64,000 nucleotides of DNA, taken from NCBI GenBank assembly GCA_024277355.1, contig JAJRVL010000004.1, forward strand, positions 264,804-328,803. Direction: 5' to 3'. Positions 6,735 to 59,876 of this stretch are shown piece by piece. The notes under the pieces were generated by a model. It had not been told where the DNA came from. It saw only the letters and a list, made by a program, of their open reading frames with translations, and did no database searches. This DNA is from an archaeon (GTDB taxonomy: Archaea > Iainarchaeota > Iainarchaeia > Iainarchaeales > 1-14-0-10-31-34). The position numbers and the translations under genes were made by a program. The stretch's first letter is position 1. Each line of letters begins with the position of its first letter.

Positions 6735-6934
6735 CTTATATTCTGGGATTAAGCTGCTATTACCATGACTCTTCCGCCTGCCTGCTTAAAAACGGAAAAA
6801 TAATTGCAGCAGCAGAAGAAGAAAGATTTACAAGAAAAAAACACGACAACTCTTTTCCTTTTAATGCAATAACATTCTGCTTAAAAAAAGAAAAAATCAC
6901 AATACAAGAAATAAACTTTATTGCTTTTTATTAA
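6731..6934 (+). CDS. carbamoyltransferase (NodU/CmcH family), N-terminal segment ending at an in-frame TAA
   Basis: MTYILGLSCYYHDSSACLLKNGKIIAAAEEERFTRKKHD is the hallmark N-terminus of NodU-type carbamoyltransferases. TAA at 6932-6934 sits where homologs have FY(E/D)KP. Confidence 0.7.
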   Translation: MTYILGLSCYYHDSSACLLKNGKIIAAAEEERFTRKKHDNSFPFNAITFCLKKEKITIQEINFIAFY

Positions 6935-6997
6935 AAACCTTTAATTAAATACGAAAGAATTCTTTCACAATACATTGAAACTTTTCCTTTAGGTTTT

Positions 6998-17764: not shown

Positions 17765-18325
17765 ATGCGCGGAAGAAATCCAGTCAGAAGAAATCAAGGA
17801 ACACATGCTTCAAAATTTCATGGACAAAAAAAGAAAACACCTTTTTTCAGAAAACTAGTGCAAAAAAAAGTTACAAAAGAAATAATGCAGAAAATTTACG
17901 GAATAGAAGCAAGAGAACAGCATTTAATTGAAAGAAGAGACGAAATACTTCATAAAACAAAAGGAATTCCTGCAATTTCAATTGGAAGATTTAGATTAAC
18001 TCCAAGTGCAAAAAACCCAAGAGAACACCAGCAAATATTATTTGAACTTCAGAATGGAGCAATGCCAAGAAAAATACTTCAGTTTTCTGAAATAAGAGAA
18101 TTAGCAAAAAGAAATCCAGTGCAATTTGGACAATTGTTTGATTTAGTTTACAAATATTTCACTGGAGAAATAACCAAAAAAGAAATAGATTCATTAACTA
18201 AATTTTTAAAGCATGCAATAGAAAAAGGAAAAACTACTGACCAAAAAATGGCAAGAGTAATTCAATTAAAAAAAAGAAGAGAAGAAGAAATAGATTTTAT
18301 CCAGTCTTATCACAAAGCAGCTTAA
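17765..18325 (+). CDS. hypothetical basic protein
   Basis: 186-aa ORF with an Arg/Lys-rich N-terminus. No recognised family. Confidence 0.4.
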   Translation: MRGRNPVRRNQGTHASKFHGQKKKTPFFRKLVQKKVTKEIMQKIYGIEAREQHLIERRDEILHKTKGIPAISIGRFRLTPSAKNPREHQQILFELQNGAMPRKILQFSEIRELAKRNPVQFGQLFDLVYKYFTGEITKKEIDSLTKFLKHAIEKGKTTDQKMARVIQLKKRREEEIDFIQSYHKAA

Positions 18326-19623
18326 GGATAACTTCTATTCAGTGTTCTAGGGAAAGGAATTGTATCTTTAATTGAATCTAATTTGCAAATCCATCTTAAT
18401 AATCTTTCAATACCGATTCCAAAACCTGAATGAGGAACACTTCCATATTTTCTTAAATCCAGATACCATTGATAGTTTTCCAAAGGAATTTTTTCTTTCT
18501 TTAATTTTTTAAGCATGTTTTCATTTATGTCTTCTCTTTGTCCGCCGGTACATAATTCTCCATAACCTTCAGGCCCTATTAAATCAAAACTATAACATTT
18601 TTTTGAGTCAGGCATTTCTTTTGCATAAAAAGCTTTTATTTTTGTAGGATAACCATAAATAAAAAAAGGAATTTTTTCATCCTGAGACAAAATTTTTTCT
18701 TCTTTAATGCTTAAATCAATTCCCCAAGGAATTTTCTTTTTGTATTTTTTTTCAAGTATTTCTAATGCTTCATCATAAGACATTTTTGCAAAAGGAGTTC
18801 TTATTGCCTTTAAGTCAGCTAAATCTCTTCCTAAAACTTTTAATTCTTCAGGGTTTTCTTCAGCTATTTTTTGACAAACAAAAGAAACCATTTTTTCTAT
18901 TTCATGCATTTGGTCATCCATGTTCATCCATGCACATTCTCCTTCTAAATGCCAGTATTCTGTTAAATGCCTTGCAGTTTTTGATTTTTCTGCCCTAAAA
19001 GAAGGAGTTAAACCAAAAACTTTTCCTAAAGCAAAAATCATTACTTCTAAATACATTTGTCCTGATTGAGAAAGATATCTTTCTTTACCAAAATATTTTA
19101 ATGGAAATAAAGTTGTTCCTCCTTCACAGGCATTAGGAGTAATCATTGCGGGACTGCATTCAAAATAATTTTCTTTTTTGTAAAATTCTCTTACAGCATA
19201 CATCAAAGTAGAACGGATTTTCATTATTGCCTGCATTTTACTGCTTCGCATCCATAAATGCCTTACATCCAATAAGAATTCTTCACTTAAATCTTTTTGT
19301 ATTGGAAAATTAATGCTTTCTCCTATTAATTTTAATTCTTCAGCCATTAATTCAAATCCAGAAGGAGCTCTTGAATCTTCCTTTAATTTTCCGGTTAATT
19401 CAACTGAAGCTTCAATGCTTTGTTTGCTTAATTTTTCAAATTCTTTTTTATCAATTTTTTCTGGTTCAATAATGCATTGAATTTCTCCTGTTTCATCTCT
19501 TAATAAAAGAAAAATTTTTTCTTTTAAATCTCTTTTTCTTTTAATCCATCCTCTGACTGAAACAAGTCCTTTTTTTTCAAAAGCTTTTTTTATTGAAATA
19601 AATTCTTTTTCCATTAATATCAC
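18322..19623 (-). CDS. asnS: asparaginyl-tRNA synthetase (class IIb, archaeal/eukaryotic type)
   Basis: N-terminal OB fold. Motif 2 FRAEKSKTARHLTEYWHLEGE, motif 3 GFGIGIERLLRW and the AsnRS-typical C-terminus IPFPRT. Confidence 0.8.
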   Translation of the reverse strand: MILMEKEFISIKKAFEKKGLVSVRGWIKRKRDLKEKIFLLLRDETGEIQCIIEPEKIDKKEFEKLSKQSIEASVELTGKLKEDSRAPSGFELMAEELKLIGESINFPIQKDLSEEFLLDVRHLWMRSSKMQAIMKIRSTLMYAVREFYKKENYFECSPAMITPNACEGGTTLFPLKYFGKERYLSQSGQMYLEVMIFALGKVFGLTPSFRAEKSKTARHLTEYWHLEGECAWMNMDDQMHEIEKMVSFVCQKIAEENPEELKVLGRDLADLKAIRTPFAKMSYDEALEILEKKYKKKIPWGIDLSIKEEKILSQDEKIPFFIYGYPTKIKAFYAKEMPDSKKCYSFDLIGPEGYGELCTGGQREDINENMLKKLKKEKIPLENYQWYLDLRKYGSVPHSGFGIGIERLLRWICKLDSIKDTIPFPRTLNRSYP

Positions 19624-19665: not shown

Positions 19666-19831
19666 CGCCCTAGAAAGGATTTGAACCTTTGACCTTCCGG
19701 TATCTGCTTTCACATAGGTGGAATAAGGCACGGCATAAAGCCGTGCTAGCGCTACTTTATGTAGCGCACACGCGTCAACCGAGTGAGCGGTTGTTTAACA
19801 GCCGGATGCTCTACCACTAAGCTACCAGAGC
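19666..19831 (-). tRNA. tRNA-Asn (anticodon GUU) with a 94-nt intron (19701..19794) after the anticodon loop
   Basis: Exon 1 is GCTCTGGTAGCTTAGTGGTAGAGCATCCGGCTGTTAA and exon 2 is CCGGAAGGTCAAAGGTTCAAATCCTTTCTAGGGCG. The anticodon stem TCCGG/CCGGA re-forms only after removal of the intervening GC-hairpin-rich segment. Confidence 0.8.
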
Positions 19832-19841
19832 AAAAAAAAAT

Positions 19842-20561
19842 TCAGAAAACTATTTTTTGTCCGGGAATTCTTGGAAACAAAGTAACGTCTTTTATGTGTT
19901 GTTTTCCACTTAAAAACCTTACAAGCCTTTCAACCCCAAAACCTCCTCCAGCAGTAGGCTTTAACATTCCTTTTTCTGCAACAGAAAGATAAGAATCAAA
20001 TGCTTTTAAGTCAGTTTTTCTTTCAAGCATTTTTTTCTTTATTGTCATAAATTCAAATTCTCTTTCTCCGCCAGATAAAGCTTCACCAAACCCTTCAGGA
20101 TAAACTAAATCATAGTTAATGTGTTTTCCTGTTATTTCATCCTGTTTGTCATAAAATTCACGGTAATAATCTGTAATCCAAAAAGGGAATTTTTCTTTTT
20201 CTGAAACAATTGCTTCAAAATCTTCTCCAAATTTTTCTTTTAATTTAACTGAATCAAAAACCTTGAAAGGTTCTTTCAAAAAAGGAATTTCTCTTTTTAA
20301 TTCACTTAATTCTTTTTCACATTCAGTTTTAACAAAAGAAAAAACATAAGTAAACAATTCTTCAGTAAAATCCATGAATTGTCTTGAAGAAGTTTCCTTT
20401 AATTCAATGTCAACCTGTGAAAATTCAATTAAATGTCTTTTGCTTTCAGATAAAGATTCTTTTTCTAATCTTACGTTAGGAGAAACAATATAAATTCCTT
20501 TAGCAAAGTCAGCCATTAAAACTAACTGTTTATGCAAAATCATGCTTTTAGTTAATTCCAA
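19842..20561 (-). CDS. AsnRS-like catalytic core without anticodon-binding domain, interpreted as archaeal-type asparagine synthetase A (AsnA-like). This is the C-terminal part of a frameshifted gene.
   Basis: Contains HLIEFSQVDIE (motif 2 region) and GGGFGVERLVRFL...LFPR (motif 3). The ORF-track start is a TTG, not an ATG, and the frame stays open upstream to a TGA. Confidence 0.6.
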   Translation of the reverse strand: MELTKSMILHKQLVLMADFAKGIYIVSPNVRLEKESLSESKRHLIEFSQVDIELKETSSRQFMDFTEELFTYVFSFVKTECEKELSELKREIPFLKEPFKVFDSVKLKEKFGEDFEAIVSEKEKFPFWITDYYREFYDKQDEITGKHINYDLVYPEGFGEALSGGEREFEFMTIKKKMLERKTDLKAFDSYLSVAEKGMLKPTAGGGFGVERLVRFLSGKQHIKDVTLFPRIPGQKIVF

Positions 20562-20569
20562 TTTCTGCC

Positions 20570-20785
20570 CTAAATATCAATTGAAGAATCATAAACTGAA
20601 TGACTTAAAGGATCAGTTAAAGGAGAAAGCATCACAGGCATTAAATGCAATACTTTTTTTGAATACATAAAAGTATCAATAGCCTTTAATGCAGCTGACT
20701 GGATTTTCAGAATATGCTTTAATTCTGGTTTCATTAAATGCTGGATTGTTTTTTCCATTTTTATCACCTGAAATAAATGCACCAA
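20570..20785 (-). CDS. N-terminal fragment (71 aa) of the same AsnA-like gene, in a different frame
   Basis: Its motif-1-like segment HLMPVMLSPLTDPLSHSVYDSSIDI precedes the catalytic core. The two ORFs are 8 nt apart. One extra T in the TTT run near 20571-20576 would fuse them. Confidence 0.5.
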   Translation of the reverse strand: MVHLFQVIKMEKTIQHLMKPELKHILKIQSAALKAIDTFMYSKKVLHLMPVMLSPLTDPLSHSVYDSSIDI

Positions 20786-21312: not shown

Positions 21313-22293
21313 TTATTTTTTTAATTTAATGTTTAATTCATCTAATTGTTTTTCTGAAACTTTACTTGGAGCTTCTTCTAATAAACCCATTGCATTTTTG
21401 TTTTTTGGAAAAGCAATTACTTCTCGAATTGAATTACTTTCAGTTAAAATCATTATTAATCTATCTAATCCAATTGCAAAACCTCCATGAGGAGGAGCAC
21501 CATACTGAAATGCTTCCAATAAAAAACCAAATTTTTGTTTTGCCTGCTTTTCATTTATTCCCAAAAAATCAAATATTTTTTGCTGGGTTTTAGGATTATG
21601 AATTCTAATTGATCCTGAACCTAATTCAGTTCCATTTAAAACTAAATCATAAGAACGGCTTCTGATTGATAATAAATCTTTTTTATTTTTTGATTCAAGT
21701 TTTTTTTCATCTTCTTTGTTAAACTGAGTAAAAGGATGATGACATGGAACAATTTCTTTTTCGTCATTTAATTCAAATAAAGGAAAATCCGTAACCCACA
21801 AAAAAGAATTCTTTAATTTTGTTTCTTTTCTTGTATCAGGTTTATCTGTTTTGTATTTTTCCATTGCTTTACTATAAGTTATTCTTGGAAAAGGAATTTT
21901 TAAGTCTTCATTTAATGCATTTTTAAAAACAAACTGCATTGTTTTTTCAAGCAAAGAATAAACATCTTCTTCTTCAACAAAACTCATTTCCAAATCCAAT
22001 TGAGTAAATTCAGGCTGCCTGTCTCCTCTTAAATCTTCATCCCTGAAACATCTTGCAATCTGAAAGTATTTGTCAAAACCTGAAACCATTAATAACTGCT
22101 TGTATAATTGAGGACTTTGAGGCAAAGCAAAAAAACTTCCATTAAATTTTCTGCTTGGAACTAAATAATCTCTTGCACCTTCAGGAGTGCTTTTAGATAA
22201 AATTGGAGTTTCAATTTCCAAAAAATCCTGCGAATCAAAAAAATCTCTCATTGATTTAATTATTTTATGTCTTAATAACAAATTATTAAACAT
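21313..22293 (-). CDS. aspS: aspartyl-tRNA synthetase catalytic domain (bacterial-type, no GAD insertion). This is the C-terminal part of a frameshifted gene.
   Basis: Contains [48 protein letters not shown] and AFPK. Confidence 0.8.
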
Positions 22294-22694
22294 TTTTTTC
22301 TTCTTAAATCTAAATACCTGTATTTTAATCTTGTATCTTCATTTGCTTTTACTTCATCTTCTATTGCAAAAGGAATTGGTTCAGCTGAATTTAATACTTC
22401 AATACTTTCAGCACTAACTTCAATTGTTCCTGTTTCAATTTTTGGATTAGAATCAGGTCTTTTTTTTACTGTTCCTTTAATTCTTAAAACAAATTCATTT
22501 AACAAAGAAGAAACTATTTCATCAGTTTTTTTGTCTTTTCTTGAAATAAAAATCTGAGTTAAACCAGTTTTATCCCTTAAATCAATAAAAGCAAATTTTT
22601 TTTGGGCACGAATTGAATTAATCCATCCTTCTAACACTACTTTTTTTCCTGTGTCTTTTTCTCTTAATTCACCGCAAAAATGAGTTCGATTCAT
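22272..22694 (-). CDS. aspS: aspartyl-tRNA synthetase N-terminal anticodon-binding OB-fold domain, in a different frame from the catalytic domain
   Basis: It ends ...[13 protein letters not shown], then runs into a spurious tail. The downstream ORF starts [19 protein letters not shown]. The join falls exactly at an A7/T7 homopolymer (plus-strand T run 22293-22299). With 8 rather than 7 bases the reading is the consensus [13 protein letters not shown]... Confidence 0.75.
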
Positions 22695-30837: not shown

Positions 30838-31431
30838 TTAAGCCAGACTAAAAGCCTTAATAATTCTCTGCAAAGCAGTTAAATTAGAAAGAACAGCAAA
30901 CAAAACCAAAAAATAAACTACATATTGAAAAGAAAAAATTCCACTCAAAAGAGTCAGGAATAAAATCAATAATCTTTCAGGTCTTTCAAGTAAACCGCCT
31001 TTTAATTCTTTTTCTAAAAACAATTTTTCTTTTGCAGCAGCCTTAGAATAAGTAGTCATCATTGTTCCAAATAAAGCCAATAAAATCCAGACTTTTGCTT
31101 CAACAAAAAAGAAAGGCAAAGAAACAAAAAACAACCCAAACAAAACAATAAAATCAGTATAACGGTCAGTTATTGTATCCAAATAAGCCCCTTTGTTTGA
31201 TGTTTTGCCTTGTACTCTTGCTACAGCACCATCAATTAAATCAACTAACGCCGTCAATACAAAAAAAATTAAAGCAAACAAAAAGTTTTCCTGCAATAAA
31301 AAATAAAAAGTTAAAACAGCAGGAATTAAAGCAGACAAAGTCCATTGATTAGGAGTAAAAGGCAATTTACCAAAAAGTAATCCTGCTTTAAGAGAAATAA
31401 AATTAAATTTTTCTCTGTTCTCTGAAATCAT
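30838..31431 (-). CDS. CDP-alcohol phosphatidyltransferase (archaetidylinositol-phosphate synthase-like)
   Basis: Signature DLIDGAVARVQGKTSNKGAYLDTITDRYTD, that is D-G-x2-A-R-x8-G-x3-D-x3-D. 197 aa, polytopic. Adjacent to the MIPS gene. Confidence 0.75.
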   Translation of the reverse strand: MISENREKFNFISLKAGLLFGKLPFTPNQWTLSALIPAVLTFYFLLQENFLFALIFFVLTALVDLIDGAVARVQGKTSNKGAYLDTITDRYTDFIVLFGLFFVSLPFFFVEAKVWILLALFGTMMTTYSKAAAKEKLFLEKELKGGLLERPERLLILFLTLLSGIFSFQYVVYFLVLFAVLSNLTALQRIIKAFSLA

Positions 31432-31433
31432 AA

Positions 31434-32537
31434 TTACCTGTCTCTTTTACCTTTAATAAATTCTTCAACCATTGTCTTGCAGACTGAATCAGAAAACTGA
31501 TGCAAAGGATGCTTCATAAAATAAGAAGAACAAGAAGTTAATTCTCCTCCAATTCCTCTGTCTCTTGCTAATTTTATAGCACGCAAAGCATCAATTGTTA
31601 TTCCTGCTGAATTAGGTGAATCCATTACACTTAATCTCATTTCTAATTCCAAAGGAATATCCCCAAATTTTCTTCCTTCCATTCTAATAAAACAAACTTT
31701 ATTGTCTTTCTGCCATGGAACATAATCACTTGGACCAATATGAATATTATCTGCATCTAATTTCTGAGGCAGTTGAGATTGAACTGATTCAGTCTTGGAA
31801 ATTTTTTTGCTTTTCAGCCTTTTTCTTTCAAGCATATTCAAAAAATCTGTATTTCCTCCAGTGTTTAACTGATAAGTTCTGTCTAATTTTACTCCTCTGT
31901 CAGAAAACAATTTAGTTAAAACTCTATGAGTAATTGTTGCTCCAACCTGACTTTTAATGTCATCTCCAACAATAGGAAGTCCTTTATCTCTAAATTTTTT
32001 TTCCCATTCAGGATTAGAAGCAATAAAAACAGGCATACAATTAACCATTCCTACTCCTGCATCCAAACAAGCCTGAGCATAATATTTTGTTGCTTCTTCA
32101 GAACCAACAGGCATAAAATTAATTAAAACATCAGCTTTAACTTCCTTTAAAACTTTTACAACATCAACTGCATTTTCATCTGAAACAACAAATCTTTTGC
32201 TTTCATCATAATTTTCCATATGCGAAGCAAAACCATCTAATACAGGGCCTTTTTGTACAATCACATTTTGTTCCGGAACATCTTTCTGGAAAACTGTAGT
32301 ACAATTAGGTTTTTCAAAAATTGCCTGACTTAAATCTTTTCCAACTTTTCTTTTATCAATATCAAATGCCGCAACAAACTTAATGTCTTTAATTGAATAA
32401 CCTGCAAACACATTATGCATTAAACCAGGAATTAATTCATCTGAATTCTTAACTGAATTATAATAATAAACTCCCTGAACTAAAGAACTCGCACAGTTCC
32501 CCACTCCTGAAATTGCAACTCTGATTTCTTTTTCCAT
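31434..32537 (-). CDS. myo-inositol-1-phosphate synthase
   Basis: NAD-binding [14 protein letters not shown] and the conserved C-terminal MIPS blocks. 367 aa. Confidence 0.8.
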
Positions 32538-36202: not shown

Positions 36203-36760
36203 ATGAAAAAAGAATACAGAAGACAATTTTTACATTTCTTTTTCGGAAGCACCATAATAATCTTAATTGGATTAATTGGAACAAAAAATTTTATTGCATT
36301 TAATTTACTAATTTTAATTACAGGTTATATTTTAGCACTAAAAATAAAAAAAGGACTAAAACTTCCAATAATAAAAGAATTCATTGATTATACAGAAAGA
36401 GAAACAGAAAAAGAACTCCCGGGAAAAGGCGCAATAACTTTTTTTATAGGAACATTAATTACATCAGTTTTATTTTACAACAATATTTTCATAGTTATTG
36501 GAGGAGTTATTACCTTAGTTTTTGGAGACAGCATTTCAAATATTGCAGGAAAAACAATAGGCAAAATAAAAATACAAGACAAAACATTAGAAGGAAGTTT
36601 TGCAGGAATAATAATTTCATTTATTTATTTATCAATTTTATTTCCTTTTTCCACTGCATTAATTGCAGCAGTAATCGGAATGACAATGGAATACCTTCCA
36701 ATAGAAGACAATTACACTATTCCAATTGCAACAGGAACAATATTAATGCTTTTAATTTAA
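36203..36760 (+). CDS. CTP-transferase family 1 membrane protein (CDP-archaeol synthase CarS-like / dolichol kinase-like)
   Basis: 185 aa, 5 TM. The C-terminal block FGDSISNIAGKTIGKIKI...KTLEGSFAGIIIS matches the CdsA/CarS/dolichol-kinase signature FGDSxAxxxGxxxGKxK...KTxEGSxAG. Its start is 2 nt after the stop of the giant surface protein gene. Confidence 0.5.
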   Translation: MKKEYRRQFLHFFFGSTIIILIGLIGTKNFIAFNLLILITGYILALKIKKGLKLPIIKEFIDYTERETEKELPGKGAITFFIGTLITSVLFYNNIFIVIGGVITLVFGDSISNIAGKTIGKIKIQDKTLEGSFAGIIISFIYLSILFPFSTALIAAVIGMTMEYLPIEDNYTIPIATGTILMLLI

Positions 36761-40360: not shown

Positions 40361-41155
40361 TCATTCCTTAAAATACAACAAAGGATTTAACACCATTGAA
40401 TAAGTTGCTAAAACCGCAGTAATAATTCTTAATACAGCAAAAACAATTAAAGCTAAAATGCTTATTAATTCAGTTTCAGCAAAAGAAACAATAAAAGCAG
40501 AAATTAAACTTAAAATCAAAGCAATAAAAGTCCCAAAAGATGCTTCTTTAATATTTTTAAAAGACTTTTTTACTGCATTAAAAACAGAACTTAAACCTTT
40601 TTTTTCTATTGCTGCAACAGGATAAATAAAATAAAACAAAACTGTAACAATAAAAACTGCAATTAAAATAACTAAACCTGAAAGAACAGAAAAAAACAAG
40701 TTATTCTGAACAAAAGAAAAAGAAAAAAAAGTTATAAAAGGAACAAGAATAATCATTGAAAGAATAAAAGCAAAAAGCACTGGAACAACAATTTTAGTGA
40801 AATTTTTTAGTACTTCTTTAATTGAAACTGAAACTGAAATACTTTTTTTATTTAAATAATTTTGTATCATTAAAGGATAAGCTGAATTAATAACTGAATC
40901 AAACACAAAAAAAATAAAAGACAAAACAAGCAAAAAAACTGCTTCAGGAAAAATTTTATTTAACAAAAAAGTTTTTTCTTCTAAAGAAGAAAGCAAATTA
41001 ATTACCTGCATTTTTTTTAATAAATTCATAGCAAATAAAAGCATTAAACCCCAGACTAATGCAAGGAAAATTTTAGGAAAAAAAAGTTTTGGTTGTTTTT
41101 TTAAAACAATAAATGAATTTTTTAAAACTTCAATTAAAGAACTCATTTTAATCAA
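40361..41155 (-). CDS. hypothetical polytopic membrane protein
   Basis: 264 aa, 6-7 TM, no motifs. 8-nt overlap with the downstream MBL ribonuclease gene. Confidence 0.4.
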   Translation of the reverse strand: MIKMSSLIEVLKNSFIVLKKQPKLFFPKIFLALVWGLMLLFAMNLLKKMQVINLLSSLEEKTFLLNKIFPEAVFLLVLSFIFFVFDSVINSAYPLMIQNYLNKKSISVSVSIKEVLKNFTKIVVPVLFAFILSMIILVPFITFFSFSFVQNNLFFSVLSGLVILIAVFIVTVLFYFIYPVAAIEKKGLSSVFNAVKKSFKNIKEASFGTFIALILSLISAFIVSFAETELISILALIVFAVLRIITAVLATYSMVLNPLLYFKE

Positions 41156-42422
41156 GTTTTATTTCCTGTCCTAATTTTGGCGCAACAGAATTAAAGCCTT
41201 CATTTTTCAGTCTTTTCTGGAAAACTTTTATTACTTTTTCATCTCCATGAACACAAATAATTTTTTCAGGGTTAGTTAATTTAGCTAATTCAATTAATTC
41301 ATCCTGTGAAGCATGAGCAGAAAAATCAAATTGTTTTACTTGATTTCTTACTTTAACTATTTCTCCATCTAAATCCACTATTCCTTTTTCCATTAAAGTT
41401 CTTCCATTAGTTCCTTCAACTTGATATCCAGTTAAAAAAATCTTTGATTTAGGGTCTTTATATAATTTTTTTAAATACCACATTACTGGACCTCCCTGAA
41501 GCATTCCAGCTGAAGTTACAATAACACAAGGCTTTTTTAAAACTGGATTTCTTCTTCCTTTTTTAATCCAGTTAGCTGAATGCAAGGCTTTTCCTAACAT
41601 TTTTGGGTTCTTTAAATGTTCAGGGAATTCAAGGGTTGTTCTTGCAACTCTTTGCCCCATTCCATCATAAAAAATATCTGCAGTAACTTTGTTTTCATAT
41701 AAAATATCAATTAATTCCTGACTTCTTCCAACAGCAAAAGCAGGAACAATTGCATGCCCGCCTTTATTTAGTGTTTCTTTTACTTCATCAACAAAAGATT
41801 TTTCTAATTCTTTTCTGTTTCCATGATTTCTGTCACCATAAGTTGACTCAATAATCAATACATCAGTTTTACCTATTTTTTTGTCTGCTCCCTTAAACAT
41901 TCTTGTATCTTCTATTTTAAAGTCTCCTGAATAAACTACATCTTTTTTTTCTGATTCAACTTTAATCATTGAAGAACCCAAAATATGCCCTGCATCAAAT
42001 AATTCAATTGAAGTGCTTTCAGATAAATTAACTTTTTTTCTGTAAGGCAAAGTAAAAGTAGATCTTTCTGTACTTCCTATATCTGCAGCAGAAAAATGAG
42101 GAGTTACCCCTTCAATTCTGGCTATTTTTAATGAATCAGCCCACAAAATCTGGCTTAATTCCAAAGTAGGCAGAGTCATATAAACAAAAGAATTTGACTG
42201 AGAAAATAATTCAGGTACAGCTCCAGAATGATCTAAATGAGCATGAGAAATAACTATTGCATCTAAATTTGTTTTTACAGGCAAAGGATATTCTATTTCA
42301 TCGCTTCCTAATTTTATTCCTCTGTCTAAAAGAATTTTTTCTCCTACATCCAACAAAAAAGAACTTCTTCCAACTTCATTTGATGCACCTAAAGCAGTTA
42401 ATTTACTCATAACAAAACACAA
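41148..42422 (-). CDS. beta-CASP family metallo-beta-lactamase ribonuclease (aCPSF/RNase J-like)
   Basis: HAHLDHSG motif II. Conserved D and H of motifs III and IV and of the beta-CASP A-C motifs. 424 aa. Confidence 0.7.
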   Translation of the reverse strand: MCFVMSKLTALGASNEVGRSSFLLDVGEKILLDRGIKLGSDEIEYPLPVKTNLDAIVISHAHLDHSGAVPELFSQSNSFVYMTLPTLELSQILWADSLKIARIEGVTPHFSAADIGSTERSTFTLPYRKKVNLSESTSIELFDAGHILGSSMIKVESEKKDVVYSGDFKIEDTRMFKGADKKIGKTDVLIIESTYGDRNHGNRKELEKSFVDEVKETLNKGGHAIVPAFAVGRSQELIDILYENKVTADIFYDGMGQRVARTTLEFPEHLKNPKMLGKALHSANWIKKGRRNPVLKKPCVIVTSAGMLQGGPVMWYLKKLYKDPKSKIFLTGYQVEGTNGRTLMEKGIVDLDGEIVKVRNQVKQFDFSAHASQDELIELAKLTNPEKIICVHGDEKVIKVFQKRLKNEGFNSVAPKLGQEIKLD

Positions 42423-42465
42423 AAATTATCCTTAAATAAAAATAATGGTTTAAGTTTAAAAAAGA

Positions 42466-43143
42466 GTGTTTTGCACAAAATTTAAATTAATTAAAACGCT
42501 TAATAATTGCATGGATTTTATTGAATCAAAAAAATTACTTGAAAAATACAAAATAAAGTTTGTTAAAGGAAAATTAATTAAAAACAAAACAGAATTAATT
42601 AATGCCTCAAAAAAAATTGGTTATCCTATTGCATTAAAAATTATTTCAAAACAAATTTCCCATAAAAGTGATGTTGGAGGAATAGCAGTAAATATCCAGA
42701 ACGAAAAACAGGCAATAGAAAAATATAATTTAATTATGAAAAATGTAAAGAAAAAAATGCCAAAAGCAATAATACAGGGAATTTTTGTGCAAAAATTTAT
42801 TTTAGGAAAACAAATTATTATTGGCGGAAAATATGACAGGCAGTTTGGCCCTACAATATTATTTGGTTTAGGGGGAATATTTGTTGAATTAATGAAAGAT
42901 GTTTCATTAAGAATCTGTCCAATTACAAGAGATGACGCAAAACAAATGATTCAAGAAATAAAAGGTTACGCCATACTAAAAGGAACAAGAGGCGAAAAAG
43001 GAATTAATTTAAAAGAATTAGAAAATGTTTTAATAAAAGTAAATGATTTAATGATGAAAGAAAAAATAAAAGAATTAGACATTAATCCTTTAATCGCAGA
43101 CGAAAAAGAAGTAATTGCAGTTGATGCAAGAGTGATTGAATGA
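42466..43143 (+). CDS. ATP-grasp domain protein (acyl-CoA synthetase NDP-forming beta-subunit-like)
   Basis: 225 aa. SKKLLEKYKIKFVKGKL...IGYPIALKIIS...HKSDVGGIAVNI resembles the ATP-grasp of ADP-forming acetyl-CoA synthetase / succinyl-CoA synthetase beta. Confidence 0.5.
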   Translation: MFCTKFKLIKTLNNCMDFIESKKLLEKYKIKFVKGKLIKNKTELINASKKIGYPIALKIISKQISHKSDVGGIAVNIQNEKQAIEKYNLIMKNVKKKMPKAIIQGIFVQKFILGKQIIIGGKYDRQFGPTILFGLGGIFVELMKDVSLRICPITRDDAKQMIQEIKGYAILKGTRGEKGINLKELENVLIKVNDLMMKEKIKELDINPLIADEKEVIAVDARVIE

Positions 43144-43388
43144 AAATTGAAATTGATTCTCCTGCAAAAATTAATTTAACTTTAGACATCATCAAAAAAA
43201 GAAAAGATAATTATCATGAATTAGAAATGATAATGCAGGAATTAGAATTAAAAGACAAAATTGAATTAAAAGAAATAAAAGAAAACACAATAAAAATTAA
43301 ATCTAATTCAAAACAAATTCCATTAAATGAAAAAAACCTTGTATGGAAAGCAGCAAAAAAATCAAAAAAAACAAAAAAATTGAAATAG
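43140..43388 (+). CDS. ispE: 4-diphosphocytidyl-2-C-methyl-D-erythritol kinase (IspE), N-terminal part of a frameshifted gene
   Basis: Contains SPAKINLTLDI...DNYHELEMI...NLVWKAAKK, the IspE N-terminal signature. It ends inside an A-rich tract. Confidence 0.7.
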   Translation: MKIEIDSPAKINLTLDIIKKRKDNYHELEMIMQELELKDKIELKEIKENTIKIKSNSKQIPLNEKNLVWKAAKKSKKTKKLK

Positions 43389-43990
43389 GAATAGAAATTT
43401 TTATTGACAAAAAGATTCCTGTTGCAGGAGGATTAGGCGGAGGAAGTTCTAATGCAGCAGCAGTAATTAAAGGATTAAACCAGTTATGGAATTTAAAAAT
43501 GGAAAAAAAAGAAATGCAAGACATTGCAGAAGAAATCGGAATGGATGTAGCATTCTTTTTGCAAGGAAAAACTGCTTTTGCTTCAGGTAGAGGAGAACAA
43601 ATCAAGCAAATAAATTCTTTTCCTAAAACAAGAATTTTAATCTGCAATCCTGGAATTCCAGTTTCAACAAGAAACGCTTATTCAAATATAAACTATGAAA
43701 AATCAGGCAAAATTTTAGCTTCACAAAAAATGAAACAAGCAATAGAACAAAAAAAAGAAATAAAAGAATTAACTGAATTAATTCACAATGACTTTGAATT
43801 TTCTGTTTTAAATTCTTTTCCTGAAATAAAAAAACTAAAAGAAGAAATGAAAGAAAATTCTTTTAATGTTTTAATGAGCGGTTCTGGAAGCACGGTTTTT
43901 TGTTTTCCTAAAACAGAAAAAGATTCAAAAGAATTAGCAGAAAAATTAAAACAAAAATATCCGGTTGTAATTGAAACATTTAGTGTTTAA
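43343..43990 (+). CDS. ispE: IspE C-terminal part (GHMP kinase ATP-binding and C-terminal domains), in a different frame from the N-terminal part
   Basis: Contains IEIGIEIFIDKKIPVAGGLGGGSSNAAAVIKGLNQLW, EIGMDVAFFL and SGSGSTVFCF. The frame switch lies in the runs A7/A8/A7 at about 43355-43385. Confidence 0.75.
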   Translation: MESSKKIKKNKKIEIGIEIFIDKKIPVAGGLGGGSSNAAAVIKGLNQLWNLKMEKKEMQDIAEEIGMDVAFFLQGKTAFASGRGEQIKQINSFPKTRILICNPGIPVSTRNAYSNINYEKSGKILASQKMKQAIEQKKEIKELTELIHNDFEFSVLNSFPEIKKLKEEMKENSFNVLMSGSGSTVFCFPKTEKDSKELAEKLKQKYPVVIETFSV

Positions 43991-43995
43991 GTTTT

Positions 43996-44253
43996 TTATT
44001 TGTATATTTTATCATGATGAGCATAATCTTCTAACACAACAGTTTTTCCTTTAATAGAATAAACCAATACAAAACTTTTCAGAATATGAACTCTTCTTTT
44101 ATTCTGTAATGGCTTTCTTAAAGGCTTAAATGTGAAAGGATTTTCAAGAATTTGTCTTATTTTATTTTTCACTGCTTTTTCATGCAAAGAATCTTTTTTT
44201 GCTATTTTTTCAAATATTTTATCAACATGCTTTTTTACTTCTAATTTATACAA
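43996..44253 (-). CDS. RelE/ParE-family type II toxin
   Basis: 85 aa. KIRQILENPFTFKPLRKPLQNKRRVHILKSFVLVYSIKGKTVVLEDYAHHDKIY matches the RelE/ParE fold consensus (NP...GK.L.G.....R.RIG.YR..Y....v.il.igHR). Confidence 0.65.
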   Translation of the reverse strand: MYKLEVKKHVDKIFEKIAKKDSLHEKAVKNKIRQILENPFTFKPLRKPLQNKRRVHILKSFVLVYSIKGKTVVLEDYAHHDKIYK

Positions 44254-44259
44254 TTAAAA

Positions 44260-44502
44260 TCATCTCTTGCGAAGCTTTTCAAAATATTCATCAAGACTTT
44301 TAACCTTAATTGTTTTTTCCTTCTCAATCATTTTCATTTTCTCAATATAATCAGTTCTTAATTCTGGTTCAAGCAATTCTTTTTCATATTCTTCAGCCAT
44401 TTTATTTATTGCCTGGCTTTTATCCTTTAAATCATACTTTGCTTTAACCAGATTTATAACATGATTAGCTTCTTTATTTATTTTCACAATCGCAGTCGGC
44501 AC
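44260..44502 (-). CDS. putative cognate antitoxin
   Basis: 80-aa ORF immediately upstream of the toxin on the same strand with a 6-nt gap. This is the classic antitoxin-first bicistron. Confidence 0.45.
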   Translation of the reverse strand: MPTAIVKINKEANHVINLVKAKYDLKDKSQAINKMAEEYEKELLEPELRTDYIEKMKMIEKEKTIKVKSLDEYFEKLRKR

Positions 44503-44613
44503 ATTATCACCATATTAATACCATATTAACATGATATTAACAAAGCATTAAAAGTCTTTACTTAAAGTAATTTGAAAGAAAATAAAAAGCTTTAGTTACG
44601 TCAATTGCAGAAA

Positions 44614-45849
44614 TTATTTGCTGTAATGCCCTTCAACATATTCTTCAATTAACTTAATGAATTCTTCAGTTAATTGTTTTGCGTTTCCTTTTAAAACTTT
44701 AATTTGTTTGCCGTCAGCAAAAACAGGAGCTGCAGGAGTTTCACCTGAACCAGGCAAACTTAAACCAATATTTGCGTTTTTGCTTTCTCCTGGACCATTA
44801 ACAATACAGCCCATTACTGCAACTTCCATTTTTTCTACTCCTTTAACTCCTTTTTTCTTCCATTCAGGAGTTTTTTTCTGTAAAAATTTTTCTACTTGTT
44901 CGGCTATTTCCTGAAATACAGTACTAGTAGTTCTTCCGCATCCAGGACAAGAAGTTATTTCAGGAGTAAAAAACCTTAAACTTAAAGACTGTAAAATTTG
45001 CTTGCAGATTTTTACTTCTTCTGTTCTGCTTGTGCCTGGAGTAGGAGTTAAAGAAGTTCTGATTGTATCTCCGATTCCTTTTTGTAATAAAACACTTAAT
45101 CCGGCAGTTGAATGAATCGCTCCCTTTAATCCTTGTCCTGCTTCAGTTACCCCTAAATGCAATGCATTATCACATCTTTCAGCAAGCAAAGAATAAGCTT
45201 TAATCATATCCTGAACTCTTGAACTTTTAGTTGAAATTACAATTTTTTTATTTTCTAAACCTAATTCAACTGCTTTGTTTTTGCTTTCAATTGCACTTGT
45301 AACTAAAGCATCAATTAAAACATCAGTATTAGCTTTTGAATAATTATTTTTTGCGTTTTCATCCATTAATCTTGCTAAAACATTTTGGTCTAATGAACCC
45401 CAATTAACTCCAATTCTAACTGGTTTATCATTATCAACTGCAACTTTAACCATTGCTTCAAAATTTGAGTCATGGCTTTCTCCAAAACCTACATTGCCTG
45501 GATTAATTCTGTATTTATCTAATGCCTGAGCACAATCAGGAAATTTAGTTAACAATAAATGACCGTTATAATGAAAGTCTCCAATTAAAGGAACTTCATA
45601 ATTTTCATCTAACAATGCTTTTTTAATTAAAGGAACTGCTTTTGCTCCTGCATCATCTTTTACAGTAAACCTGACTAATTCACTTCCTGCATCAGCTAAC
45701 TCTTTTATTTGATTAACAGTAGCTTTAACATCTTCAGTTGGAGTATTAGTCATTGATTGAATTACAACAGGATTATCTCCTCCAATAATTATGTTTCCAA
45801 CTTTAACTGCAATACTTTTTCTTCTCATTAAAAAACTAAATAAGAACAA
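44614..45849 (-). CDS. ispG: 4-hydroxy-3-methylbut-2-enyl diphosphate synthase (IspG/GcpE)
   Basis: 411 aa. TIM-barrel N-terminal domain. C-terminal 4Fe-4S cysteines CPGCGRT and VAVMGCIVNGPGE. Confidence 0.85.
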   Translation of the reverse strand: MFLFSFLMRRKSIAVKVGNIIIGGDNPVVIQSMTNTPTEDVKATVNQIKELADAGSELVRFTVKDDAGAKAVPLIKKALLDENYEVPLIGDFHYNGHLLLTKFPDCAQALDKYRINPGNVGFGESHDSNFEAMVKVAVDNDKPVRIGVNWGSLDQNVLARLMDENAKNNYSKANTDVLIDALVTSAIESKNKAVELGLENKKIVISTKSSRVQDMIKAYSLLAERCDNALHLGVTEAGQGLKGAIHSTAGLSVLLQKGIGDTIRTSLTPTPGTSRTEEVKICKQILQSLSLRFFTPEITSCPGCGRTTSTVFQEIAEQVEKFLQKKTPEWKKKGVKGVEKMEVAVMGCIVNGPGESKNANIGLSLPGSGETPAAPVFADGKQIKVLKGNAKQLTEEFIKLIEEYVEGHYSK

Positions 45850-45928
45850 ATATTTAAAGAAATTGTATTAAAGAACACCTGAAAAGATTTAAGGAATATT
45901 AATAAATTTTACTCTCTTTTTTTATTTC

Positions 45929-46783
45929 ATGCATATTCCTGATGGATTTTTATCAATTGAAATTTCACTTTTATTCTGGATAATTTCTTTTATTGTTGTT
46001 TCATTTTCTTTTAAAAAATTAAAAAAGAATTCAAAAAAAATTATTTTATTTGGTTTAGCAGGAGCAGTAATTTTTCTTGCACAAATGTTTAATTTTCCTG
46101 TTTTAGGAGGCACATCAGGACATTTAATTTTAGGAGGACTGCTTGCATTACTTTTAGGATTTGATTCAGCAGTAATCATAATGGCTTCAGTTTTGTTTAT
46201 TCAGTCAGCAGTATTCCATGACGGCGGAATTTTTTCATTAGGGGCAAATGTTTTCAATATGGCGATTATTTCTCCTTTTGCTGCAGTAAAAACAAAACAA
46301 TTAATAAAAAATAATTTTTCTGTTTTAATTGCAGGAATACTTTCAGTTTTAACTGCTGTATTTCTTGTTTCATTGCAGTTGTTTTTTTCAGGAACAACAG
46401 AATTAATGCCTGTATTAAATTCAATGCTTTTAGTTCATTTAGTAATTGGATTAATTGAAGGAATTTTTTCTTTTTGTGTTTATTATATTTTAATTAACAA
46501 AAATATTTCATTAAAAATTAATCCAAAAAAAATAATTCTTGCTTCAATAATTATTGGATTAATTATTGTGCCTTTTGCTTCTGCTCTGCCTGATGGATTA
46601 GAAAAAACAGCAGAAAAACTTGAATTTAATGAACTTGCATTAAATTCAATGACTCCAATAACAGTAATGGCAGACTATTTGTTTCCAGGAATAGAAAATG
46701 AATTAATTGCAGTTTCTTTAGCCGGCTTTTTTGGTTCAGTAATAGTTTTTTCATTAATTTTTATTTTAATGAAACCAAAATGA
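45929..46783 (+). CDS. cbiM: ECF/cobalt transporter substrate component CbiM with C-terminal PDGLE domain
   Basis: The invariant N-terminus MHIPDGFL. 6-7 TM. C-terminal ALPDGLEKTAEKLEF (PDGLE motif). Confidence 0.8.
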   Translation: MHIPDGFLSIEISLLFWIISFIVVSFSFKKLKKNSKKIILFGLAGAVIFLAQMFNFPVLGGTSGHLILGGLLALLLGFDSAVIIMASVLFIQSAVFHDGGIFSLGANVFNMAIISPFAAVKTKQLIKNNFSVLIAGILSVLTAVFLVSLQLFFSGTTELMPVLNSMLLVHLVIGLIEGIFSFCVYYILINKNISLKINPKKIILASIIIGLIIVPFASALPDGLEKTAEKLEFNELALNSMTPITVMADYLFPGIENELIAVSLAGFFGSVIVFSLIFILMKPK

Positions 46784-47574
46784 TTTTTTATATGCAAAAA
46801 AACAAAACAATACTACTCTTATTTCTTTTAATTTTTTTATCTGCATGCATACAAAATAATAATTCATTTAACTGCGAAAACGGAAAAACTTATTTTGTTT
46901 CAAGAATAATAGATGGAGATACAATTGAAGCAGAAAACAAAAAAATAAGATTAAATGGAATTAATACTCCTGAAAAAAAAGAAGCCTGTTTTAATAAAGC
47001 AAAAGAATTCTTAGAAAAAGAAATTTTAGAAAAAAAAGTTTTAATTAAAGAAAAAGGAACAGACAAATACGGAAGAATTATAGGAAGTGTTTGTGTTAAC
47101 GGAAAATCAGTAAACAAAGAATTAATTAAACAAGGCTTAGCCCATTATGCTTTTACTGAATCAGAAGAATTAAAAAAAATACAGGAAAAAGCAATAAAAG
47201 AAAACAAAGGATGCTTATGGAAAAAAGGAACAGACAAATACATTCAGGAAAAATGCATTAAATTAAAAAAACTTGAATTTAATCAGAAAAACTTTAACGG
47301 AGAGTTTGTTGAATTTTCAAATGACTGCAATTATTCAATTGACTTAAATGGATTTTATTTAAAAGATGAAGCAACACACTTGTATTTTTTTCCTGCAATA
47401 GAACTGAAAGGAAAATCTTTTGTAAGAGTTTTCTCTGAAAAAGGAATTAATTCAGGAAACGAATTATATTGGGGAAAAGGAAACATCTGGAATAATGATT
47501 CAGACCAGTTATTTTTAAGAAATGAAAAAGGATTTTTAATTGTTTATTTTGAATACAACAATACTTTAAATTAA
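46780..47574 (+). CDS. secreted lipoprotein nuclease: staphylococcal-nuclease (SNase) domain fused to a C-terminal lamin-tail-like domain
   Basis: Lipobox FLSAC. SNase blocks VSRIIDGDTIE...RLNGINTPE...DKYGRIIGSV...GKSVNKELIKQGLA. C-terminal roughly 100-aa beta-domain FVEFSNDCNYSIDLNGFYLKDE...FFP...SFVRVFSEKG matches lamin-tail domain patterns. Confidence 0.65.
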   Translation: MIFYMQKNKTILLLFLLIFLSACIQNNNSFNCENGKTYFVSRIIDGDTIEAENKKIRLNGINTPEKKEACFNKAKEFLEKEILEKKVLIKEKGTDKYGRIIGSVCVNGKSVNKELIKQGLAHYAFTESEELKKIQEKAIKENKGCLWKKGTDKYIQEKCIKLKKLEFNQKNFNGEFVEFSNDCNYSIDLNGFYLKDEATHLYFFPAIELKGKSFVRVFSEKGINSGNELYWGKGNIWNNDSDQLFLRNEKGFLIVYFEYNNTLN

Positions 47575-47595
47575 ATTTCCTTTACTATTTTAATA

Positions 47596-48339
47596 ATGCA
47601 GTTAATTTATATTTTTGGAAGCGTTATATTAGTAAGTTTAATTTCTTTAATTGGAGTATTTACTTTAGGATTAAATAAAGAATTCTTAAGCAAAATACTG
47701 CTTTATTTAGTTAGTTTTTCTGCAGGTTCATTATTTGGAGGAACATTTATTCACTTACTTCCTGAAGCAGTGGAAGAATATGGTTTTGGAACAGAAATAT
47801 CAGTTTTTCTTTTATCCGGAATAGTTGTATTTTTTGTTATAGAAAAAACAATTCACTGGCACCACTGCCACGGCTATCCTTCTGGAAAATGCGAACACAA
47901 AAGTTTTACTTATATGAATTTAATTGGAGATGGAATACACAACTTTATTGACGGAATGGTAATAGCAGGAAGTTATCTGGCAAACACAACACTAGGAATA
48001 ACAACAACAATAGCAGTACTATTGCACGAAATCCCTCAGGAAATAGGCGATTATGCAGTATTAATTCACGGAGGATTCAGCAAAAAAAAAGCATTATTAA
48101 TGAATTTTCTTTCAGCTTTAACTTCAATACTTGGAGCAGCAACAATAATATTTATTTCAACAACAACAGAAAACATTCTGGCAATACTTCTTCCATTTAC
48201 TGCAGGAAGCTTTATTTACATTGCAGGCTCAGATTTAATTCCAGAATTACACAAAGAATATGAATTAAAAAAATCAATCGGATTATTAATTTCATTTATT
48301 GCAGGAATAACAATAATGTTTTTGCTGACTTTTATATAA
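47596..48339 (+). CDS. ZIP-family metal cation transporter (ZupT-like)
   Basis: HEIPQEIGDYAVL signature (HExPxExGD), a His-rich loop HWHHCHGYPSGKCEH and 8 TM. Confidence 0.75.
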   Translation: MQLIYIFGSVILVSLISLIGVFTLGLNKEFLSKILLYLVSFSAGSLFGGTFIHLLPEAVEEYGFGTEISVFLLSGIVVFFVIEKTIHWHHCHGYPSGKCEHKSFTYMNLIGDGIHNFIDGMVIAGSYLANTTLGITTTIAVLLHEIPQEIGDYAVLIHGGFSKKKALLMNFLSALTSILGAATIIFISTTTENILAILLPFTAGSFIYIAGSDLIPELHKEYELKKSIGLLISFIAGITIMFLLTFI

Positions 48340-54486: not shown

Positions 54487-55032
54487 ATGACAGAATACCT
54501 TGATGTAATAAATAAAAACAATGAAATAACAGGAAAAAAAACAAGAAAAGAAATTCATGAAAAAGGATTAATGCATAAATCTGTTCATGTCTGGATTTTA
54601 AATGAAAAAAAAGAAGTTTTATGCAATTTAAGAAACAAAAATAAAGATTTGTTTGCTGGTTTATGGGATGCTGTTTTCGGCGAACACTTAAAAACAGGAG
54701 AAAATTTTGAAACAGCAGCAGTAAGAGGCATAAAAGAAGAATTAGGAATTAAAACAAATAAAAAAAATTTAATTGAATTAGGAATAAATAAAGAAAAACA
54801 AAAAGATTCAGAAAAAAATTTATTTAATAATGAATTCCAGAAAATTTTTTTATTTAAAACCACAAAAAAAATAAATGAATTAAAATTTCAAAAAACTGAA
54901 ATAGAAAAAATAAAATTCATTGAAATAAATAAATTAAAAGAAATTTTAAAACAAGAAAAAATGAATTTTATTCCTAAAAATAAATATTATTTGAAAATAA
55001 TCAAAAAAATAAAAACAGAGTACAATTTATAA
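54487..55032 (+). CDS. NUDIX hydrolase
   Basis: Nudix box GEHLKTGENFETAAVRGIKEELGI (GX5EX7REUXEEXGU). Confidence 0.7.
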   Translation: MTEYLDVINKNNEITGKKTRKEIHEKGLMHKSVHVWILNEKKEVLCNLRNKNKDLFAGLWDAVFGEHLKTGENFETAAVRGIKEELGIKTNKKNLIELGINKEKQKDSEKNLFNNEFQKIFLFKTTKKINELKFQKTEIEKIKFIEINKLKEILKQEKMNFIPKNKYYLKIIKKIKTEYNL

Positions 55033-59672: not shown

Positions 59673-59876
59673 ATGACTGAATTGCCTTTAGCAGCATTAG
59701 ATAGAATAATAAGAAAAAGTTCAGGTTTAAGAGTAAGCGAAAGTGCTTCAAAAGAATTAGGTTTATTTTTAGAAACAGAAGGAGAAAAAATTTCAAGAAC
59801 TGCAGCAGAATTCGCAAAACATGCAGGAAGAAAAACAATTATTGATGCAGACATAAAATTAGCAGTAAAAAAATAA
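59673..59876 (+). CDS. archaeal histone (HMf family)
   Basis: 67 aa. Histone fold with AEFAKHAGRKTIIDADIKLAVK. Strong SD-like AAGGAGGCG 8 nt upstream. Confidence 0.8.
   Translation: MTELPLAALDRIIRKSSGLRVSESASKELGLFLETEGEKISRTAAEFAKHAGRKTIIDADIKLAVKK

Follow-up and report, generated by a model that had tools for sequence, protein, structure and literature searches.

Bacterial-type ispE and ispG genes as probable long-standing residents of an Iainarchaeales genome, separated by an apparently recent toxin–antitoxin insertion

Genes of the methylerythritol phosphate (MEP) pathway have been reported in 'a few DPANN archaea' (PMC6107057). They are co-located in a monophyletic clade of 52 Woesearchaeota (Woesearchaeales) genomes (PMC8204110) and are present in Woesearchaeota subgroups F and J (PMC8421398); the latter two papers cite Castelle & Banfield (2018) for the bacterial MEP or 1-deoxy-D-xylulose 5-phosphate (DOXP) pathway genes of Woesearchaeales. 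A complete MEP pathway has been described in the Micrarchaeota orders Norongarragalinales, Zaosheniarchaeales, and Micrarchaeales (PMC12892359), in a study according to which only Woesearchaeales had previously been found to have it, and which does not report it from Iainarchaeota. No published attribution of MEP genes to Iainarchaeota was found in the literature searched. In the present study, two such genes, ispE and ispG, were analysed in a 64-kb stretch of DNA (the window; GenBank assembly GCA_024277355.1, contig JAJRVL010000004.1, positions 264,804 to 328,803) from a small, low-GC genome of a DPANN archaeon of the Iainarchaeales. The interval of interest contains four genes: ispE, which is split, a toxin gene, an antitoxin gene, and ispG. 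As an overall explanation, it is held with good confidence that the transfer which brought in ispE and ispG was old, and that both genes have probably been resident and vertically inherited since before the family diversified, because they share their gene order with the relatives, diverge as their neighbours do, and have native codon usage and G+C content at third codon positions (GC3).

The ispG gene (44614..45828, minus strand), for 4-hydroxy-3-methylbut-2-enyl diphosphate (HMBPP) synthase or GcpE, is intact. Its open reading frame (ORF) spans 44614-45849 and the likely start is the ATG at 45828, giving a protein of 404 amino acids encoded tail-to-tail with ispE; an identical protein of this length, P0001, is encoded on an NCBI contig of 526,574 bp. 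The protein matches both curated models over its full length, with 451 bits on NF001540 (cut-off 345) and 391 bits on TIGR00612 (cut-off 280), and has 386 bits (1.4e-115) on the Pfam GcpE family (PF04551). It aligns end-to-end with the solved IspG structure 4s38 (495 bits, residues 1-402), and also with 2y0f. The [4Fe-4S] cluster of IspG is bound in the C-terminal domain by three Cys and one Glu, in motifs of the form tsCpgCgrt and mgCivngpgE, and the CPGCGRT and MGCIVNGPGE motifs of the window protein are identical in the alignment to 4s38. Both IspG structures are those of Thermus thermophilus, and the IspE structure 2v2q used below that of Aquifex aeolicus.

When a single A is restored to the interrupted ispE, the gene encodes an IspE of 283 amino acids that scores 249 bits on TIGR00154, well over the cut-off of 138.7; among the models of sister GHMP kinases, it reaches 73-80 bits for homoserine kinase and 36-48 bits for mevalonate kinase. 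The repaired protein aligns to 2v2q with 127 bits (residues 3-268), without a gap at the repaired junction, and also aligns to 3pyd. In IspE, the catalytic Lys lies in SPAKINL and the catalytic Asp in the GxD..FF motif, while GGLGGGSS forms the ATP loop (motif II, PxGxGLGGGSS). GHMP motif II (...IPVAGGLGGGSSNA...), SPAKINL, and GMDVAFFL are all retained in alignment to the two IspE structures. The original prediction, which had named both genes as MEP-pathway enzymes, is thus borne out in this respect: curated models are passed and motifs align to solved IspE and IspG, as expected of genuine orthologues and not of divergent paralogues. The closest relative, L092, is a 1,199-bp Logan contig with 90 % nucleotide and 91 % amino acid identity to the window; between the two, the ratio of nonsynonymous to synonymous substitution (dN/dS) is 0.17 for ispE (0.21 downstream of the break), a value no different from that of the ispG C-terminus. 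Together, these comparisons show both genes to be orthologues of the MEP enzymes, with intact catalytic motifs and the signature of purifying selection.

The relatives of the two proteins indicate where they came from. The closest homologues of IspG are in DPANN metagenome assemblies, with 71-83 % identity. Outside the family, sequences from DPANN archaea labelled Woesearchaeota, Nanoarchaeota, and Micrarchaeota are 61-65 % identical, and the nearest outside DPANN are from Melainabacteria/Obscuribacterales, Methylococcales, and Deltaproteobacteria (57-65 %). For IspE there is no relative between 71 % and 47 % identity; the next are mostly Firmicutes (41-47 %), and a Woesearchaeota sequence has 41 %. 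As the nearest relatives of both proteins outside DPANN are bacterial, the horizontal acquisition from bacteria that had been proposed is upheld, and the ultimate origin of the genes, as judged from their homologues, is clear. In a neighbour-joining (NJ) tree of IspG with 100 bootstraps, the family forms a clade with 100 % support, and its sister relation to sequences of the type found in loci L088 and L090 has 23 %. The same tree groups the known archaeal sequences together, without labelled bacteria, at only 54 %, and this weakly supported deep topology counts against the overall explanation. The NJ tree identifies neither the donor nor the number of transfers into DPANN.

Comparison with relatives suggests that the genes have been in place for a long time. 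The loci of eight relatives (L001 to L007 and L089; from NCBI, ENA, JGI, and Logan) share with the window the gene order helix-turn-helix (HTH)–NMD3–membrane protein–betaCASP–ATPgrasp–ispE–(slot)–ispG–...–SNase–ZIP–HTH5–Grx (glutaredoxin). Two of these relatives, L006 and L007, are placed in the GTDB Iainarchaeales family f__1-14-0-10-31-34 by genome tables (PMC8204110, PMC12892359), and the window proteins are 60-89 % identical to theirs. On the strength of this synteny and identity, the window most likely belongs to the same family. Identity to the relatives is 73 % for IspE and 78 % for IspG, within the 62-87 % of the flanking archaeal genes, and when the identity of the window to the relatives is divided by that among the relatives themselves, every gene compared falls within 0.98-1.05. 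Composition tells the same story. Against a window background GC3 of 0.151±0.026, ispE has 0.148 and ispG 0.146 (z −0.1 and −0.2), and the codon-distance z is −0.7 for each. A recent transfer of ispE and ispG is therefore not supported, given native GC3 and codon usage, a family-wide gene order, and divergence equal to that of flanking archaeal genes.

A scenario may be proposed from these data. An ancestor of this archaeon would have gained bacterial-type MEP genes long ago, and ispE and ispG would then have been passed down vertically as a fixed tail-to-tail pair within an archaeal housekeeping block. IspE would phosphorylate CDP-methylerythritol with ATP, and the [4Fe-4S] cluster of IspG would reduce methylerythritol cyclodiphosphate to HMBPP; both, with enzymes encoded elsewhere, would supply isopentenyl diphosphate (IPP) and dimethylallyl diphosphate (DMAPP) to archaeal isoprenoid lipid synthesis. 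Two recent, lineage-specific events would have followed. In one, a 618-bp archaeal-type DUF2683-RelE/ParE cassette entered the spacer of a few nucleotides that separates the ispE and ispG stops and duplicated 7 bp in doing so; as for the other, one A is missing from an A8 tract in ispE.

The break in ispE (43140..43990, plus strand; CDP-methylerythritol kinase) had been overlooked when the gene was first named. What was said of its identity stands, since the repaired protein is a genuine IspE, but the gene is not one ORF: it is split by a 1-nt deletion. On the plus strand, a 5′ piece of 82 amino acids in frame 0 (43140-43388) covers TIGR00154 profile positions 1-76, and a 3′ piece of 215 amino acids in frame −1 (ORF 43343-43990, stop codon 43988-43990) covers positions 77-272; the source genome annotation also calls ispE as separate products of 82 and 215 amino acids. 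Alignment with four relatives shows one 1-nt gap, within an A-rich stretch after GCAGC. The deletion site is an A7 homopolymer (43355..43361, plus strand), with GCAGC-A7-TC in the window versus GCAGC-A8-TC in L092, where IspE (P0248) is intact with 283 amino acids. All nine relatives have an uninterrupted frame (282-287 amino acids), and only the window ispE does not. There are no further lesions in the gene and no extra divergence; over the eight relatives, the window-to-relatives over relative-to-relative identity ratio is 1.006. Because the dN/dS of ispE is low and the repaired protein is undiverged relative to the eight relatives, the frameshift is, on present comparisons, either recent or an artefact.

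Similar lesions are present elsewhere in the window. A bacterial-type aspS (21313-22694, minus strand) is broken into ORFs of 140 and 326 amino acids where a 7-nt homopolymer near 22293-22299 has lost 1 nt, a lesion of the same kind as that in ispE; an intact asnS is at 18322-19623. An archaeal-type asparagine synthetase A gene (asnA-like; 19842-20785, minus strand) is present as ORFs of 71 and 239 amino acids, with a 1-nt deletion near 20562-20572. A NodU-like carbamoyltransferase gene (6680-8452, plus strand) has an in-frame TAA at 6932-6934 (…IAFY*KPLIKYERIL…), which is a substitution and not a homopolymer indel.

It is slightly likelier that the A missing from ispE is a homopolymer under-call in the assembly than that it is a real recent mutation. 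The balance tips towards under-calling because each of the three frameshifts comes from the loss of 1 nt, in one case within the gene of an aminoacyl-tRNA synthetase, and because the source contig, at 526,574 bp, is of unusual length. The other explanation, that ispE is a true and very recent pseudogene in a strain in which the MEP route is disappearing or already gone and which relies on a host or another pathway, is given a somewhat lower but still considerable probability. It draws on the frameshift being in the deposited sequence and on the split gene calls of the source, on three more disrupted genes in the window, and on the reductive nature of DPANN genomes. The true nonsense codon in the carbamoyltransferase gene suggests that some real gene decay is possible, and so speaks against a purely artefactual origin of the lesions. 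Against a pseudogene, the lesion is single, dN/dS is low, and divergence is not in excess; the same type of lesion strikes an aminoacyl-tRNA synthetase gene, the neighbouring ispG is intact, and losses of 1 nt are a pattern also typical of base-calling errors.

A further question is whether the two enzymes belong to a working pathway. IspE and IspG catalyse non-consecutive MEP steps, 4 and 6, with IspF between them, and the pair alone makes no pathway. That IspE and IspG would be part of a complete MEP pathway feeding IPP and DMAPP to archaeal lipids is inferred from this, and from the presence of full MEP clusters on other DPANN contigs. Several results weigh against it. Neither dxs, ispD, ispF, and ispH (by tblastn with archaeal seeds) nor isopentenyl phosphate kinase (IPK), IDI2, and polyprenyl synthase genes were found in the 64-kb window, dxr not being included in the search. 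With the LYTB domain of the Micrarchaeota-like L088 as query, a search for IspH found no protein on the source contig or those of the relatives. In addition, the literature describes Iainarchaeota/Diapherotrites as users of the mevalonate pathway. Likewise, no other MEP genes are present within ±10 kb in the eight relatives.

From these same absences and the reported mevalonate-pathway genes, ispE and ispG could be an orphan pair kept without the other MEP enzymes for a different function, such as the use of salvaged intermediates beside a mevalonate pathway. This is unlikely. An ispG beside IPK-like and IDI2-like genes in the unrelated, archaeal-looking L090 lends it some support, but two non-consecutive steps alone make no pathway, equivalog cut-offs are passed with catalytic residues intact and purifying selection, complete clusters exist in other DPANN, and 64 kb of a genome of about 1 Mb tells little.

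The contigs of other lineages used in these comparisons have features of their own. In L090 (1123-5706; Logan SRR33452767), ispG is followed by genes for an unknown protein of 220 amino acids, an amino-acid-kinase-family (IPK-like) protein, a Nudix protein, and an FMN_dh protein resembling type 2 IPP isomerase (IDI), so that the cluster, as annotated by similarity, is a mixture of MEP-type and mevalonate-type steps. In L088 (7077-15680; JGI 3300035688), the order is dxs–ispE–ispG–x–ispD–ispF–ispH::Nudix–Nudix–polyprenyl synthase; this cluster adjoins Hef/ERCC4 and ribosomal protein S2 genes, and dxr is not within ±10 kb of it. Both ispG and ispH are present on L087, where they are adjacent, and on L091, where one unrelated gene lies between them. 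The AT-rich archaeal IspH groups P0149 (L091) and P0152 (L093) were considered and rejected as candidates, as they belong to other lineages (GC 37-38 % versus 28-34 % in the family); L091 carries its own ispG in a different context.

Within the window, a Nudix protein gene about 9 kb from ispG (54487-55032, plus strand) has its best matches to type 1 IPP isomerase models (65.6 bits; cut-off 127). A myo-inositol-1-phosphate synthase gene adjoins one for a CDP-alcohol phosphatidyltransferase (30838-32537, minus strand), which scores 137 bits as archaetidylinositol phosphate synthase (cut-off 180). These inositol genes point to a putative polar-lipid head-group pathway, the substrate of which would have to be a CDP-lipid with isoprenoid (or acyl) chains. 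The window has no other recognisable isoprenoid genes, and the ORF at 36203-36757 has no family match.

The break in ispE might also be bypassed, with a −1 ribosomal slip on A_AAA_AAA, or slippage of RNA polymerase on the A-tract, yielding full-length IspE. Frame 0 reads GC[A AAA AAA]TC, in keeping with the canonical slippery heptamer rule X_XXY_YYZ, and a −1 slip would give exactly the product of 283 amino acids. This is improbable all the same. The feature is not conserved: all nine relatives are in frame here and most are non-homopolymeric at this site; the 89 nt downstream have no structure (z = −0.43); and such heptamers are commonplace, with 132 A7 and 87 A8 runs in the window. Programmed −1 frameshifting was rejected for the lack of downstream structure and the absence of the frameshift from all relatives.

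The remaining two genes of the interval form the toxin–antitoxin pair between ispE and ispG, as originally proposed. The toxin (43996..44253, minus strand; 85 amino acids) is a YafQ-like member of the RelE/ParE superfamily, with 32.5 bits on PF05016 (ParE_toxin; cut-off 23); it is below the cut-offs of TIGR02385 (25.1 bits; cut-off 27.9) and TIGR00053 (57 bits; cut-off 87). The antitoxin candidate (44260..44502, minus strand; 80 amino acids) is a DUF2683 protein with 32.2 bits on PF10884 (cut-off 27). It is the upstream partner, on the same strand as ispG, and 6 nt separate the end of its gene from the start of the toxin gene. With both families above their cut-offs the pair is well identified, and toxicity and neutralisation are predicted functions. 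Directly upstream of the antitoxin start lies a tandem repeat of 11 bp in 3.6 copies (44503..44542, minus strand; Tandem Repeats Finder score 52), with the plus-strand consensus ATTAACACCAT, which may be the promoter or operator of the cassette.

At the corresponding site in L092 there is no cassette, and 4 nt lie between the ispE and ispG stop codons; it is exactly at this point that the window has an insertion of 618 bp. A direct repeat, TTATTTG, marks the two ends. Comparison of the junction with the empty site in L092 places the left copy at 43996..44002, overlapping the toxin stop codon, and repeat comparison places the right copy at 44614..44620, overlapping the ispG stop codon. The copies are 618 bp apart, and this 7-mer is seen only 23 times in 64 kb. 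In the other relatives the slot varies. HicB-HicA genes are in L001/L002 and L004/L005, a HicB gene with a remnant is in L007, and L003, L006, and L089 have nothing there. The presence of unrelated families at one slot argues for repeated independent insertion or replacement and not for one inherited element, and the ispE/ispG junction seems to have received insertions more than once.

The antitoxin gene is also unusual in composition, its GC3 of 0.247 being an outlier (z = 3.8). Among 72,556 plasmids, the only matches to the toxin are on three methanogen plasmids, where they are annotated as RelE/ParE and have 38-44 % identity over 81-99 % of the length; on one, NC_015632.1 (Methanothermococcus okinawensis), the toxin homologue adjoins a DUF2683 family protein. 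The cassette resembles no phage record and has no defence-system match in PADLOC, and neither the window nor the other loci retrieved contain a second copy. Because of the empty L092 site, the variable slot, the antitoxin GC3, and the methanogen-plasmid matches, the cassette is probably recent and is uninformative on the origin of ispE and ispG; it is best described as a recent, archaeal-type insertion independent of these genes.

The use originally made of the pair, as support for a mobile or accessory origin of its neighbours, does not hold, since L092 is without the cassette, other relatives have HicAB or nothing, and the cassette is of archaeal type. It is accordingly very improbable that a single mobile or accessory island, gained from bacteria not long ago, comprises ispE, ispG, and the toxin–antitoxin pair, even though the two biosynthetic genes are of bacterial type, a toxin–antitoxin module lies between them, and the antitoxin GC3 is atypical. 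Apart from the history of the slot, ispE and ispG have native composition, family-wide synteny with archaeal core genes, and the same divergence as their neighbours, and no integrase or transposase is present among the ten genes scanned (41148-48339). By odd composition, patchiness, and mobility genes, ispE and ispG do not resemble a genomic island; only the 618-bp cassette does. A bacterial contaminant or chimeric join, which bacterial-type genes in an apparent metagenome assembly might bring to mind, can be dismissed, because nine independent assemblies (NCBI, ENA, JGI, and Logan) have these same junctions, flanked to left and right by archaeal genes, and composition is uniform across the region.

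The archaeal context described in the original prediction (histone, fibrillarin, ribosomal protein S8e, and intron-bearing tRNAs) was confirmed. The window encodes archaeal core genes, including those for fibrillarin, aNOP56, S8e, Hef, a histone (59679-59873), and the archaetidylinositol-phosphate-synthase-like protein. The tRNA is a 166-nt Rfam match (19666-19831, minus strand; 53.7 bits) with an implied intron of about 90 nt; ARAGORN did not report a tRNA there. Upstream of ispE is an ATP-grasp_5 gene (42466..43143, plus strand; Pfam PF13549, 3.6e-70) that resembles the beta subunit of ADP-forming acyl-CoA synthetase (ACD). In the window, as in L001, L002, L004, and L005, its stop codon shares 4 nt (ATGA) with the ispE start; in the other relatives the gene still adjoins ispE, but the overlap differs or a short spacer intervenes. 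ATP-grasp_5 and ispE may thus be a conserved operon of two genes, with no obvious functional link. Among the relatives, the long purD (glycinamide ribonucleotide synthetase, GARS) genes of L001 (17452-19818; 788 amino acids) and L004 (19567-21218; 782 amino acids) have a faint LAGLIDADG match, and the protein is of 433 amino acids in L089, which suggests that the long forms carry an intein. The ZIP transporter gene is in two pieces in L001.

MEP genes in DPANN have already been described, and the Iainarchaeota case adds one lineage and no new phenomenon. The split between MEP and mevalonate pathways is part of the bacterial/archaeal 'lipid divide', and each archaeal lineage that runs the MEP pathway shows how easily it can be crossed; it also bears on whether some DPANN make their own lipids or take those of a host. 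To the list of Woesearchaeales and Micrarchaeota the window adds at most one family, of Iainarchaeales. Tentatively, family 1-14-0-10-31-34 may be a third MEP-using DPANN lineage or, more unusually, one that keeps an ispE/ispG pair beside mevalonate genes, and in either case with the junction as a recurrent landing pad for HicAB and DUF2683-RelE/ParE modules with a short target duplication. The locus is a clean natural example of toxin–antitoxin cassettes entering one intergenic site repeatedly, and a toxin–antitoxin pair beside foreign-looking genes is no evidence of the mobility of those genes. A homopolymer frameshift in a very AT-rich assembly, for its part, needs to be checked against the reads before it is used to decide whether a pathway is present or has been lost.

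Among known systems, that of Woesearchaeales likewise has bacterial-type ispE and ispG, along with other MEP genes, in small DPANN genomes, where they are read as acquired from bacteria, with IspG 61-65 % identical. The host here is of the Iainarchaeales, however, only ispE and ispG are adjacent whereas MEP genes are co-located in Woesearchaeales, and Woesearchaeal IspE is 41 % identical. Micrarchaeota are similarly a DPANN phylum with horizontally acquired MEP genes, and the IspG of the Micrarchaeota-like L088 is 62 % identical to that of the window, but for IspE the identity is only 41 %, and the genes are arranged in another order and orientation. With the solved bacterial enzymes (IspG 4s38 and 2y0f, IspE 2v2q), the window proteins share full length and conserved CPGC...GC..GE, GGLGGGSS, the SPAKINL Lys, and the GMDVAFF Asp; the host here is archaeal, though, and the deposited ispE is frameshifted. 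The cassette resembles the DUF2683-RelE/ParE modules of methanogen plasmids in having a small antitoxin upstream of the toxin, the same pairing as on NC_015632.1, but is chromosomal and wedged between two convergent biosynthetic genes. Lastly, the HicAB modules of the sister genomes occupy the same slot in the same orientation, downstream of ispG and co-directional with it, although they belong to an unrelated toxin–antitoxin family.

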